Of a stretch of DNA of 64,000 nucleotides, positions 26,389 through 59,444 are shown in pieces. The DNA is from Escherichia coli (GTDB taxonomy: Bacteria; Pseudomonadota; Gammaproteobacteria; Enterobacterales; Enterobacteriaceae): assembly GCF_051903065.1 (NCBI RefSeq), contig NZ_CP178438.1, one strand, 5' to 3'. The notes below the pieces were generated by a model. It saw only the letters and a list, made by a program, of their open reading frames with translations, was not told where the DNA came from and made no database searches. The translations under genes were made by a program, and so were the position numbers. Each line of letters starts with the position of its first letter. Position 1 is the first letter of the stretch.

Positions 26389-27576
26389 ATGAACTTATCT
26401 CTGAGACGCTCTACTTGCGCCCTTCTCGCCTCGTCATTGTTATTAACTATCGGACGCGGCGCCACGCTGCCATTTATGACTATTTACTTAAGTCGTCAGT
26501 ACAGCCTGAGTGTCGATCTCATTGGTTATGCGATGACAATTGCGCTCACTATTGGCGTCGTTTTTAGCCTCGGTTTTGGTATCCTGGCGGATAAGTTCGA
26601 CAAGAAACGCTATATGTTACTGGCAATTACGGCCTTCGCCAGCGGTTTTATTGCTATTCCCCTGGAGGACAGCGTCACGCTGGTGGTACTTTTTTTCGCA
26701 CTCATCAACTGCGCCTATTCCGTTTTTGCCACAGTGTTGAAAGCCTGGTTTGCCGACAATCTTTCATCCACCAGCAAAACGAAGATCTTCTCGATCAACT
26801 ACACCATGCTCAATATTGGCTGGACCGTCGGCCCGCCGCTCGGCACGCTGTTGGTGATGCAGAGCATCAATCTGCCCTTTTGGCTGGCAGCTATCTGTTC
26901 CGCGTTTCCCATGCTTTTCATTCAAATTTGGGTAAAGCGCAGCGAGAAAATCATCGCCACGGAAACAGACAGTGTCTGGTCGCCGAAAGTTTTATTACAA
27001 GATAAAGCACTGTTGTGGTTTACCTGCTCTGGCTTTCTGGCTTCTTTTGTTAGTGGCGCATTTGCTTCATGCATCTCACAATATGTGATGGTGATTGCTG
27101 ATGGGGATTTTGCCGAAAAGGTGGTCGCGGTTGTTCTTCCGGTGAATGCTGCCATGGTGGTTACGTTGCAATATTCCGTGGGCCGCCGCCTTAACCCGGC
27201 TAACATCCGCGCGCTGATGACAGCTGGCACCCTCTGTTTCGTCATCGGTCTGGTCGGTTTTATTTTTTCCGGCAACAGCCTGCTATTGTGGGGTATGTCA
27301 GCTGCGGTATTTACTGTCGGTGAAATCATTTATGCGCCGGGCGAGTATATGTTGATTGACCATATTGCGCCGCCAGGAATGAAAGCCAGCTATTTTTCCG
27401 CCCAGTCTTTAGGCTGGCTTGGTGCCGCAATTAACCCATTAGTGAGTGGCGTAGTGCTAACCAGCCTGCCGCCTTCCTCGCTGTTTATCATCTTAGCGTT
27501 GGTGATCATTGCTGCGTGGGTGCTGATGTTAAAAGGGATTCGTGCAAAACCGTGGGGGCAGCCCGCGCTTTGTTGA
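26389..27576 (+). CDS. ydeE: MFS transporter YdeE
   Basis: 395-aa 12-TM MFS ORF. Confidence 0.85.
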   Translation: MNLSLRRSTCALLASSLLLTIGRGATLPFMTIYLSRQYSLSVDLIGYAMTIALTIGVVFSLGFGILADKFDKKRYMLLAITAFASGFIAIPLEDSVTLVVLFFALINCAYSVFATVLKAWFADNLSSTSKTKIFSINYTMLNIGWTVGPPLGTLLVMQSINLPFWLAAICSAFPMLFIQIWVKRSEKIIATETDSVWSPKVLLQDKALLWFTCSGFLASFVSGAFASCISQYVMVIADGDFAEKVVAVVLPVNAAMVVTLQYSVGRRLNPANIRALMTAGTLCFVIGLVGFIFSGNSLLLWGMSAAVFTVGEIIYAPGEYMLIDHIAPPGMKASYFSAQSLGWLGAAINPLVSGVVLTSLPPSSLFIILALVIIAAWVLMLKGIRAKPWGQPALC

Positions 27577-27702
27577 TTTAAGTCGAACACAATAAAAATT
27601 TAATTCAGCCTTCGTTTAGGTTACCTCTGCTAATATCTTTCTCATTGAGATGAAAATTAAGGTAAGCGAGGAAACACACCACACCATAAACGGAGGCAAA
27701 TA

Positions 27703-27798
27703 ATGCTGGGTAATATGAATGTTTTTATGGCAGTACTGGGAATAATTTTATTTTCTGGTTTTCTGGCAGCGTATTTCAGCCACAAATGGGATGACTAA
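27703..27798 (+). CDS. mgtS: Small membrane protein MgtS (31 aa)
   Basis: ATG...TAA encodes MLGNMNVFMAVLGIILFSGFLAAYFSHKWDD with an upstream GGAGG RBS; below the ORF-track size cutoff, read directly from the DNA. Confidence 0.85.
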   Translation: MLGNMNVFMAVLGIILFSGFLAAYFSHKWDD

Positions 27799-27825
27799 TG
27801 AACGGAGATAATCCCTCACCTAACC

Positions 27826-27864
27826 GGCCCCTTGTTACAGTTGTGTACAAGGGGCCTGATTTTT
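27826..27864 (+). terminator. Rho-independent terminator of mgtS
   Basis: GGCCCCTTGT...ACAAGGGGCC stem followed by a T-run. Confidence 0.65.
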
Positions 27865-27869
27865 ATGAC

Positions 27870-27968
27870 GGCGAAAAAAAACCGCCAGTAAACCGGCGGT
27901 GAATGCTTGCATGGATAGATTTGTGTTTTGCTTTTACGCTAACAGGCATTTTCCTGCACTGATAACGG
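27870..27968 (-). ncRNA. mgrR: PhoP-activated small RNA MgrR (ends approximate)
   Basis: Minus-strand terminator (stem CCGCCGGTTTACTGGCGG plus U-run) about 100 nt downstream of a PhoP-box-like promoter; lies between mgtS and dgcZ as in K-12. Confidence 0.6.
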
Positions 27969-28005
27969 ATCGTTGACACAGTAGCATCAGTTTTCTCAAT
28001 GAATG

Positions 28006-28023
28006 TTAAACGGAGCTTAAACT
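28006..28023 (-). promoter_or_regulatory. PhoP box (direct GTTTA repeat) of the mgrR promoter
   Basis: Minus-strand AGTTTA-AGCTC-CGTTTA fits (T/G)GTTTA-N5-(T/G)GTTTA. Confidence 0.6.
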
Positions 28024-28907
28024 CGGTTAATCACATTTTGTTCGTCAATAAACATGCAGCGATTTCTTCCGGTTTGCTTACCCTCATACATTGCCCGGTC
28101 TGCTCTTCCAATGACCACATCCAGAGGCTCTTCAGGAAATGCGCGACTGACACCTGCTGTCACGGTAATGTTGATATGCCCTTCAGAATGTGTGATGGCA
28201 TGGTTATCGACTAACTGGCAAATTCTGACACCTGCACGACATGCTTCTTCATCATTAGCCGCTTTGACAATAATGATAAATTCTTCGCCCCCGTAGCGAT
28301 AAACCGTTTCGTAATCACGCGTCCAACTGGCTAAGTAAGTTGCCAGGGTGCGTAATACTACATCGCCGATTAAATGCCCGTAGGTATCATTAACCAATTT
28401 AAATCGGTCAATATCCAACAACATTAAATAAAGATTCAGAGGCTCAGTGTTGCGTAACTGATGATCAAAGGATTCATCAAGAACCCGACGCCCCGGCAAT
28501 CCCGTCAAAACATCCATATTGCTACGGATTGTCAGCAAATAAATTTTGTAATCGGTTAATGCCGCAGTAAAAGAAAGCAACCCCTCCTGAAAGGCGTCGA
28601 AATGCGCGTCCTGCCAGTGATTTTCAACAATAGCCAGCATTAATTCCCGACCACAGTTATGCATATGTTGATGGGCAGAATCCATTAGCCGAACGTAAGG
28701 TAATTCATCGTTATCGAGTGGCCCCAGATGATCAATCCACCGACCAAACTGGCACAGTCCATAAGAATGGTTATCCGTTATTTCTGGCTTACTGGCATCT
28801 CTCGCTACCACGCTGTGAAACATACTCACCAGCCACTGGTAGTGGGCATCGATAGCCTTATTGAGATTTAACAAGATGGCATCAATTTCCGTTGTCTTCT
28901 TGATCAT
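28017..28907 (-). CDS. dgcZ: Zinc-regulated diguanylate cyclase (CZB + GGDEF)
   Basis: GGDEF domain (RYGGEEF); start placed at MIKKTTEIDAIL (296 aa). Confidence 0.85.
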   Translation of the reverse strand: MIKKTTEIDAILLNLNKAIDAHYQWLVSMFHSVVARDASKPEITDNHSYGLCQFGRWIDHLGPLDNDELPYVRLMDSAHQHMHNCGRELMLAIVENHWQDAHFDAFQEGLLSFTAALTDYKIYLLTIRSNMDVLTGLPGRRVLDESFDHQLRNTEPLNLYLMLLDIDRFKLVNDTYGHLIGDVVLRTLATYLASWTRDYETVYRYGGEEFIIIVKAANDEEACRAGVRICQLVDNHAITHSEGHINITVTAGVSRAFPEEPLDVVIGRADRAMYEGKQTGRNRCMFIDEQNVINRV

Positions 28908-39367: not shown

Positions 39368-39943
39368 CTACGGCAGTGCTGGCCATTCAATATCCTGTGC
39401 AGTTGACGTATCAACACGGTTCAGCAATACCCGATACTTTTTCCATGCTTCCAGCAACGAGATTTCTTCCTCCGTTGCAATTTCCAGATCTGCAGCATCC
39501 TGAAGCGGCGCAATATGCTCACTGGCTACCTGCATCAGGTTGTTTTTTGTTTCTTCCGCCTCCCGGATCCGGAACAGTTTTTCTGCTTCCGTATCCTTCA
39601 CCCAGGCTGTGCCGTTCCACTTCTGAAACTCCCCTTCCGGCGATAACCAGGTAACATTTTCCGGTAACGGACCGAGTTCAGAAATAAATAACGCGTCGCC
39701 GGAAGCCACGTCATAGACGGTTTTTCCCCGATGATCTTCAACGAGATGCCACGATGCCTCATCACTGTTGAAAACAGCCACGAAGCCTGCCGGAATATCT
39801 GGCGGTGCAATATCGGTACTGTTTGCTGGCAGACCTGTATGAGGCGGAATATATGCGTCACCTTCACCAATAAATTCATTAGTTCCGGCCAGCAGATTAT
39901 AAATTTTTATGGTCTGTGGTTGTTCACTCATTCTGAATGCCAT
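39368..39943 (-). CDS. tfaQ: Tail fibre assembly protein
   Basis: 191-aa ORF of the lambda Tfa family, immediately downstream of stf. Confidence 0.85.
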
Positions 39944-48734: not shown

Positions 48735-49080
48735 GATGGTGTTAACTCCAGTCATCGCTGGCACTACCACTGCTGGTTCAGAGTTAAAAAAAACTATGAT
48801 TTTTTTCATGATGTTACCGTAGTATGTGAGTATCCATCGAATAGACACCAAGCAAAAAAGCTCCCGAAGGAGCCTTCATTTTCACTTTTTTAAATCCAAC
48901 GACAGACGGCTGGCATTTAAGTATTGTGAAATATTATCAAATGTAATCATCATTGATTTACAAAAGATACATTTTGCCCCGAAAGGATTCATGTCAGAAA
49001 CATCAAAAGATGATGTTCTATACTGGGAACCATGACAACACGGGCATCTAAAGTGAATATGGTTTGTAATATTGTCTACC

Positions 49081-49293
49081 TCAAAGCGCCACTACATGAA
49101 CAGCGGCAGGACCTTTAGGTCCGTTCTCAATACCAAATTCAACTTCCTGATTCTCAGTTAATGTTTTGAAATCGTTGCTCTGAATTGCTGAGAAATGGAC
49201 AAACACATCTTTGCTGCCATCTTTCGGCGTGATGAAACCAAAACCTTTTTCAGGGTTAAACCATTTCACTAAACCAGTCATTTTGTTAGACAT
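49081..49293 (-). CDS. cspI: Cold shock protein CspI
   Basis: 70-aa [44 protein letters not shown]... Confidence 0.9.
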
Positions 49294-49655
49294 AATTATT
49301 ACCTTTTGAAGAAATTAGCCCTTGGGCAGAATGGTCCGAAAAAAAATATCAGAGAGAAAAACCAACAAGGAAATCTCAAGAGGTACAAATAATAAAATTA
49401 TAACAATGACTGCTTCAGATAAATTTGTAACAAACCAGAACACCATTAACGCATGATTAACCACCCATAGCAAGGATTACTTTTGTAAAGAAAAACACAG
49501 CAATGAAAGAATAGCTTTATTTATTAATAAAACGTGTCATTCTGATTAAGACCTTTTATCTTACCCTTAAGATTTCAGGAATTTTGGCTCATGGAAGAGT
49601 CCTTTTTATTTAAATTTTACATTCCGCGATGTAAATGTTCCGATTTAATATTACC

Positions 49656-51600: not shown

Positions 51601-51963
51601 TTGATTTTATTAGTAACAAGTATTTTTTATATTTTAATAATATATTTAAAGCAGATAATAAAAAACCCGCCTGAGCGGGTTTGAGATTGTGGTGCTTTTT
51701 GTGGGAGTCATCCACTTACGCACTTTGTTTTGCGATGCCAGCAGTTAGCTTCTGCTGTGAAACTATTCATGCAGCAAACCTGCACTTCACCACAATGGTT
51801 AGCATACTTTTCCTGATTAAGATTTTGCCAAATATGCTGGCCATTGTTTCATGTATTGGACCTCCTTACTTTTTATTAAAGAGATCCAATATTCACTACT
51901 CTGTCCGTATCTCTACTCAGGCATCAGCCTTCTTCGTTATCGTATACAGACGAGCGATGAATT

Positions 51964-52179
51964 TTAATCAGTAATGATGACATTTACTGCTGCAGGACCT
52001 TTAGCACCACTCTCTATAGAGAAGGTAACCTTTTGACCTTCAAATAAGGTTCGATAATTATCATTCTGAATCGCAGAAAAATGCACAAACACATCTTTAC
52101 TACCATCAACAGGAGAAATAAAGCCGAAACCTTTATCAGCGTTAAACCATTTTACTAAACCAGTCATTTTATTTGACAT
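51964..52179 (-). CDS. cspB: Cold shock protein CspB
   Basis: 71-aa [44 protein letters not shown]... Confidence 0.9.
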
Positions 52180-52489
52180 TCTACATTCCTTAACTTGAGC
52201 CTTTCGGCATAAATGGTTTGCATAACAGAAACGACTTCGTACTTAATTGGAGAGACTCAAAGAAGGAATAAGTGAATAACACCTGAAATGAGAACTGCTT
52301 TAGTAAACTACTTCGTATATCGTCTGTTCTTCAAACCGACGCAGTCATTAACTCATAGTTGAACATATGAAGCAATGTTTATTTTAGACATCCAGCCACC
52401 TTCAATCCTATCAAAAAAGTAGTTTTCTCCAGGAACGTGTGTATGGTGCACCAGGTTATCAGTATTAAGGAGTTTTTCTGTCCCCTAAA

Positions 52490-59110: not shown

Positions 59111-59444
59111 GAAAAATCCCCCAGAGAATTGTCTGGGGACATTTTAGAATGGTTCAAAGGGGACATTACAGCTTGGTGTTAACAATAGCCTGCTTCTCCG
59201 TGCCTTTCGGCACGTAAGAGGCTAACCTACATGTGTCTAGCATGAAATTGGCCTCAGATTAATGTTAAGCGTCTTGCAGGACGCGTAATGTTAACTGGGG
59301 CTTTTCTCTATCTGCCGTTGGTGTCCATGCCCGAGGCAGATAGCCTCAAGCACCCGCAGTCATTCTACTTAACTAAGATTTCCCCGCAAACCGTTTTTGT
59401 CCAGCACAGTAAATATCCAACTAAACCAATGGAGTTCGCTGTAT

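Follow-up and report, generated by a model that had tools for sequence, protein, structure and literature searches.

The PhoQ-PhoP response of Escherichia coli to low magnesium includes two small genes that PhoP activates: mgtS (formerly yneM), which encodes a protein of 31 amino acids (aa), and mgrR, which specifies a small RNA (sRNA). Published work with strain K-12 found transcription of yneM to be PhoP/PhoQ-dependent. MgtS is a small inner-membrane protein that stabilises MgtA, an importer of Mg2+, against FtsH and inhibits PitA, a phosphate/metal symporter. MgrR, reported to rank with the most abundant Hfq-bound sRNAs when conditions induce PhoP, represses targets that include pitA, eptB, soxS, and ygdQ; lipopolysaccharide-modification targets are among these (PMC8313858 and other published work). 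A further small protein, MgtT, was detected by ribosome profiling and tagging, and low Mg2+ induces it in a PhoQ-dependent manner within an mgtS-mgtT operon. MgtT is not membrane-associated, and neither its deletion nor its overexpression produced a phenotype.

PhoP-activated promoters have been sorted by architecture. For Salmonella promoters with a PhoP box in direct orientation, Zwir et al. (2012) described one class in which the box lies 12 nucleotides (nt) from the -10 element, overlapping the -35 region (mgtA, phoP), and a second in which it lies 21-23 nt from the -10 element (rstA, ompX) and which depends on the RNA polymerase alpha C-terminal domain. According to the published literature, two mismatches are usual in the PhoP boxes of E. 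coli.

Here we describe the mgtS-mgrR locus within a 64,000-nt stretch of E. coli DNA (RefSeq assembly GCF_051903065.1, contig NZ_CP178438.1), referred to below as the window. The sequence is almost certainly that of the E. coli ydeE / mgtS-mgtT / mgrR / dgcZ locus, which serves the PhoQ-PhoP response to low magnesium as an output module with two promoters, and no evidence contradicting that identification was found in this analysis of the window. All elements of the locus have been published before for K-12; nothing in it is new. Two transcription units converge here. On the plus strand, one PhoP-box promoter is followed by three tandem small open reading frames (ORFs; 17 aa, mgtS with 31 aa, and mgtT with 34 aa), whose neighbours overlap by one base. 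On the minus strand, a second PhoP-box promoter precedes the 98-nt MgrR RNA gene. Both units run into two back-to-back intrinsic terminators, T1 and T2 (Table 1).

Comparison with E. coli K-12 MG1655 carries the identification. A 501-bp stretch aligns with the K-12 sequence without gaps and with four substitutions, and the K-12 feature table has mgtS, mgtT, mgrR, and dgcZ in the matching places. Because the alignment is gap-free, that feature table transfers directly to the window (window position equals K-12 position minus 1,594,943). The order, strands, lengths, and overlaps of mgtS (b4599), mgtT (b4775), and mgrR (b4698), found at 1,622,646-1,622,914 in K-12, are alike in the two sequences; the MgtS and MgtT proteins are identical; and so are the PhoP boxes, the -10 elements, and both terminators. 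One substitution, at 27597, lies upstream of the mgtS PhoP box, and two, at 27732 and 27768, are synonymous changes in mgtS. The fourth, at 27968, makes nucleotide 4 of MgrR a C here and a U in K-12; it falls in the unpaired 5' tail of the RNA, and both variants are seen in other genera. The 501-bp segment was found in 5416 of 5426 complete E. coli genomes.

An earlier note, made from this sequence alone, had picked out the interval 27703-28025, which sits between the ydeE and dgcZ genes, and had called it a known locus. The K-12 feature table and the family matches described below agree. Alignment with K-12 mgtS and mgrR places mgrR on the minus strand and inside the proposed interval, contradicting neither strand nor boundaries. 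What the note said of gene identities, strands, convergent layout, paired terminators, and a PhoP box stands. It was incomplete: mgtT, the 17-aa ORF, and the mgtS PhoP box (which lies outside that interval) had been omitted.

Table 1. Coordinates of features in and around the mgtS-mgrR locus of the window
Feature	Position	Strand	Description or basis
mgtS (formerly yneM), coding sequence, 31 aa + stop	27703-27798	+	ATG ORF; NF033842; K-12 b4599
mgtT, coding sequence, 34 aa + stop	27798-27902	+	ORF; K-12 b4775; Pfam PF23498
mgrR, sRNA gene, 98 nt	27971-27874	-	K-12 b4698 via gap-free alignment; Rfam RF01407
T1, intrinsic terminator downstream of mgtS	27826-27866	+	Bulged 13-bp hairpin 27826-27856, then UGAUUUUUAU
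T2, mgrR terminator	27900-27874	-	Stem 27900-27881, U8 27881-27874
mgtS PhoP box, AATTCA-gcctt-CGTTTA	27602-27618	+	Read from sequence; conserved in register
Predicted mgtS -10 hexamer, TAATAT	27631-27636	+	Read from sequence
17-aa upstream ORF, MKIKVSEETHHTINGGK	27650-27703	+	Sequence identical to CDS58 of a PIRT-seq study
mgrR PhoP box, AGTTTA-agctc-CGTTTA	28007-28023	-	-52 to -36 from the mgrR 5' end (27971 = +1)
Extended -10 of mgrR promoter, TGcTACTGT	27978-27986	-	Hexamer TACTGT at -12 to -7
ydeE, 395-aa major facilitator superfamily transporter	26389-27576	+	NF007472, 793 bits; upstream neighbour
dgcZ (ydeH), diguanylate cyclase	28017-28907	-	K-12 b1535; NF007380, 521.6 bits

An ORF the size of mgtS does not by itself point to a gene, since the 1.8 kb around the locus are overlapped by 31 ORFs of 20 aa or more. 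The product of this one, MLGNMNVFMAVLGIILFSGFLAAYFSHKWDD, is 100% identical to K-12 YP_001165319 (b4599), and it matches the NCBIfam equivalog NF033842 over positions 1-31 of 31 (80.6 bits; cutoff, 35). A Shine-Dalgarno sequence, GGAGG, lies at 27692-27696, 6 nt upstream of the ATG. Moreover, in a set of 25 distinct orthologous sequences from enterobacterial species, taken from a scan of species-representative genomes, variability at codon positions 1, 2, and 3 of mgtS is 46, 14, and 197, which reads as a strong coding signature. The ORF, the family match, the identity to the K-12 protein, and this codon pattern together uphold the 31-aa MgtS frame proposed earlier.

The PhoP box upstream of mgtS combines a strong proximal half-site (CGTTTA, 27613-27618) with a degenerate distal one (AATTCA). 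Its pattern, (A/G)TT(C/A)A-N6-GTTTA, is kept in register in all 25 enterobacterial sequences, and a TAnnnT hexamer occupies the -10 position in most aligned species; transcription would start near 27643-27644. The box ends 12 nt upstream of the -10 hexamer, as in the mgtA, phoP, and slyB promoters (architecture I of Zwir et al.), from which it differs by the degenerate distal half-site. By analogy, behaviour like that of mgtA and phoP is to be expected of the mgtS promoter. Directly upstream of the promoter, a terminator-like hairpin on the plus strand (27551-27567; CGTGGGGGCAGCCCGCG then CTTTGTTGAT) overlaps the last ydeE codons. The ydeE 3' end itself is annotated 57 nt shorter in strain 23CRST027 than in K-12.

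Between promoter and mgtS lies the 17-aa ORF, which falls below the length limit of the ORF listing; its stop codon TAA and the mgtS ATG share one base (TAATG). A transposon-reporter study published in 2025, using PIRT-seq, listed the same sequence as CDS58 and obtained a weak western-blot signal, with a faint tagged product only. In the cross-species alignment, E. albertii and E. whittamii lack its ATG. The same leader contains an element at 27655-27672, AAGGTAAGnGAGG, that is nearly invariant across genera, while the rest of the untranslated region (UTR), the start codon of the 17-aa ORF, and the Shine-Dalgarno spacing all vary around it. This element could be a ribosome standby site or a binding site for an sRNA or protein.

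The mgrR promoter is organised differently. Its PhoP box contains the repeat GTTTA-N6-GTTTA (GTTTAAGCTCCGTTTA, at 28022-28007 on the minus, mgrR, strand), two cores with an 11-bp period, and its position coincides exactly with the published PhoP site at -52 to -36. (That site is attributed to Moon and Gottesman 2009 in PMC8313858, where it was assigned by consensus-motif identification.) The earlier note had placed this repeat at the right distance from the sRNA. The repeat is indeed present at -52 to -36, but its spacing departs from the classical 12 nt: between the end of the box and the -10 element lie 23 nt, one helical turn more. Most aligned species keep the extended -10 pattern TGnTAnnnT at a constant spacing to the PhoP half-site, and at 17-18 nt spacing no match to a -35 element is found (the sequence there is ACATTC). 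A single direct box 23 nt upstream of the -10 element is the arrangement of rstA and ompX (architecture III); dependence on the alpha C-terminal domain was shown for rstA and is only carried over to mgrR by this likeness, and mgrR differs in having an extended -10 (TGn) as well. By analogy, then, we expect the mgrR promoter to act as those of rstA and ompX do and to need the alpha C-terminal domain. The two promoters of one locus therefore use two different PhoP spacings, 12 nt for mgtS and 23 nt for mgrR, and their PhoP boxes and -10 elements stay in register across Escherichia, Salmonella, Citrobacter, Kosakonia, Phytobacter, Pluralibacter, and others.

Other candidate elements in the mgrR promoter fit less well. 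The hexamer AAAACT, which follows the box at the classical 12 nt, was rejected as the -10 element; it is not conserved in other genera, and TGnTAnnnT is. TTGAGA (27999-27994) was rejected as a -35 element, lying merely 10 nt from the -10. A conserved motif, TTCATTGAG (28003-27995, minus strand), occupies -32 to -24 between the box and the extended -10 in nearly all genera. It fits neither a -35 element, for which its spacing is unusable, nor a third PhoP half-site, which it matches at 3 of 6 positions. The E. albertii sequence has 11 additional bases between the dgcZ stop codon and the mgrR PhoP box.

MgrR itself begins with the G at 27971. The minus strand matches the Rfam family RF01407 with 281.9 bits (gathering score, 55; E = 1.8e-64), which, with the mgrR annotation of K-12, confirms the convergent sRNA gene that had been proposed. 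The predicted fold (dG, -25.9; z, -2.9) consists of three parts: a 5' stem-loop; a long unpaired middle; and a terminator hairpin with a run of eight U residues (U8). A long U tail after a Rho-independent terminator is typical of Hfq-binding sRNAs, and MgrR, in keeping with its Rfam family name and the sRNA literature in general, depends on Hfq and has an antisense mode of action. Among 29 distinct sequences, both helices are kept in the consensus structure, and the single-stranded core, AAAACACAAAUCUAUCCAUGCAAGC (27929-27905), is invariant. E. coli genomes annotated by PGAP list mgtS and mgtT and carry no mgrR noncoding RNA feature under the match (0 of the 15 best-matching RefSeq records); compared with these 15, only the curated K-12 record has that feature.

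The two terminators stand back to back, as the earlier note had said: folding and the U tracts identify T1 on the plus strand and T2 on the minus strand, with about 7 nt between the T1 tail and the first base of the T2 U-run. Relative to shuffled controls, both stems are unusually stable (T1: dG, -22.6 kcal/mol; z, -4.8; T2: dG, -13.7 kcal/mol; z, -4.9). Neither hairpin is followed by a U tract on the opposite strand, so both are directional. A simple terminator scan found T2 and missed T1, because the T1 stem is bulged; T1 was recovered by folding and cross-species comparison. Most mgtS transcripts would end at T1. On the other side, the terminator scan found none between dgcZ and mgrR. Because of this, and because the mgrR PhoP box includes the stop codon of dgcZ, dgcZ transcripts probably run through mgrR to T2, with the whole MgrR sequence in their 3' UTR.

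Two features call for some caution. The U-tract of T1 in E. coli is interrupted (UGAUUUUUAU), and the T or G expected at the first position of the strict (T/G)GTTTA motif is absent in both mgrR half-sites, which have A and C. (The box thereby departs from (T/G)GTTTA-N5-(T/G)GTTTA at 2 of 12 positions, within the usual two mismatches.) Nor would the exact-match count carry much weight alone: GTTTAAGCTCCGTTTA is the only exact GTTTA-N6-GTTTA match in 64 kb, 0.14 are expected from shuffles, and one occurs in 14 of 100 shuffled versions of the window; a search of the window allowing one mismatch was uninformative (6 matches versus 4.3 expected). Moreover, the last Val codon of dgcZ and its stop codon (GTT TAA) literally make up the distal half-site, which varies between genera. 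The repeat might accordingly be a chance by-product of the dgcZ 3' end with no part in mgrR control, a reading that we find scarcely credible. The proximal half-site (CGTTTA or TGTTTA) is kept in all species with a PhoP-type promoter, and its spacing to the extended -10 is fixed in each of the genera sampled, also where dgcZ is not adjacent; the box coincides with the published site; and in published work, altering the PhoP level affects both mgrR-lacZ fusions and the amount of MgrR. It is position and proximal half-site conservation that make the mgrR PhoP box convincing. The extent of the sRNA invites a comparable question. RF01407 describes STnc560, a Salmonella Hfq-binding RNA that is MgrR, and our sequence matches this covariance model end to end over 214 positions, with core and terminator alike. 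The sRNA could on this basis be a longer unit of 214 nt (28005-27792), extending through both hairpins to the end of mgtS; the T1 sequence also folds well on the minus strand (dG, -23.2). This is very improbable. The model is wider than mgrR, with 34 nt of promoter at one end and 82 nt beyond the terminator at the other: its match starts between the PhoP box and the -10, so that its first 34 positions include the conserved extended -10, and it passes the U8 terminator and T1 to reach the mgtS stop codon. A strong hairpin with its U8 tract ends at 27874; on the minus strand the T1 hairpin is followed by GGUUAGGUGAGG, without a U tract; and the curated K-12 annotation gives 98 nt. The RF01407 match thus overstates the boundaries of the 98-nt MgrR and is not to be taken as its extent.

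The remaining question concerns mgtT. Its ATG overlaps the mgtS stop codon (TAATG, 27796-27800), and its frame crosses T1 and ends in the mgrR terminator stem, overlapping mgrR by 29 nt on the opposite strand; T1 therefore lies inside an annotated coding sequence. The hairpin might matter as MgtT coding sequence rather than as a terminator, leaving one shared terminator region instead of two. The gene is annotated in K-12 and by PGAP; a Pfam family exists, which MgtT matches at full length (PF23498; 96.3 bits; cutoff, 27); and a transposon reporter screen has detected it, in addition to ribosome profiling and tagging. We nonetheless consider this reading unlikely. In all 25 distinct orthologous loci a strong hairpin stands 27-28 nt after the mgtT ATG and is followed by a U-rich tail, and its stem carries compensatory changes, for example GGCCCCTTG/CAAGGGGCC versus GGCCCCTCGCG/CGCGAGGGGCC versus AGCCCCTTACG/CGTAAGGGGCT. 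The frame, in contrast, stops at codon 9-10 in 6 of these orthologues and at codon 15 in another 5; in the rest it gives 24-83 aa; the 34-aa form occurs only in E. coli and E. albertii, and E. whittamii has 30 aa. Codons 2-9 show no codon periodicity and no third-position excess (32/43/53, versus 46/14/197 for mgtS). Between K-12 and a divergent Escherichia lineage (L011), nearly all mgtT nucleotide differences, judged by eye, change an amino acid, whereas MgtS is identical; the published lack of a phenotype points the same way. A conserved MgtT protein across genera was accordingly rejected, as outside Escherichia the frame is broken or very variable in length and lacks codon periodicity. Because the hairpin is present in all 25 sequences while the mgtT frame varies, the conserved object is T1 as an RNA hairpin and terminator, not the mgtT frame. 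With T1 as a terminator, full-length MgtT would come only from transcripts that read through it, and such transcripts would run antisense to the last 29 nt of MgrR.

What is conserved around the mgtT start is an AUG fused to the mgtS stop, a run of about 25 nt that follows it, and the T1 hairpin; the end of the frame varies by genus, falling shortly before, inside, or far beyond T1. We offer one speculative suggestion, which is itself more likely wrong than right by a wide measure: that the part of mgtT that has been kept is not a protein, and that ribosomes re-initiating at the junction AUG move up to or into T1 and so tune how much transcription continues into the region antisense to MgrR. 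If true, re-initiation would couple mgtS translation to formation of the mgtS 3' end, and possibly to MgrR levels, and the 34-aa MgtT of Escherichia would be a lineage-specific by-product.

Some relatives depart from the common arrangement. In Enterobacteriaceae bacterium RIT691 (L012:1356-3088) the mgrR core occurs twice, at a distance of 1594 nt. The T1 3' arm and the greater part of mgrR belong to a direct repeat, about 140 nt long and 93-96% identical, that flanks a 1.45-kb insert that encodes a 127-aa ORF, with weak, sub-threshold matches to CHAP, NlpC-P60, and Tae4, and a 177-aa DUF3828 protein. The mgrR copy adjacent to mgtS has lost the PhoP-type promoter; the other copy retains it. 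This looks like an insertion that duplicated its target. Two further occurrences are probably assembly contamination: a contig from a Caldithrix metagenome-assembled genome carries a sequence identical to the K-12 mgtS-mgrR locus, and a contig labelled Chryseobacterium sp. 18061 has a locus very similar to the one in Citrobacter sp. 18056, which comes from the same project.

Elsewhere in the window, other Rfam matches, all on the minus strand, lie at 39402-39600, 49054-49439, 51917-52340, and 59184-59355: IS009, two cspA-type thermoregulator leaders, and sok antitoxin RNA. They suggest cold-shock-gene paralogues and a hok/sok module, probably within a prophage-like region downstream of the mgtS-mgrR locus.

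The value of this locus is as a check on annotation: the 15 best-matching RefSeq E. coli records lack the mgrR noncoding RNA feature, and the Rfam model would give the wrong sRNA boundaries. Moreover, mgtT is a cautionary case, an annotated and detected small ORF whose conservation is better explained by an overlapping RNA terminator. According to the literature, MgtS and MgrR together raise intracellular Mg2+ and alter lipopolysaccharide modification, so that a protein and an RNA from one locus converge on the same physiological goal.

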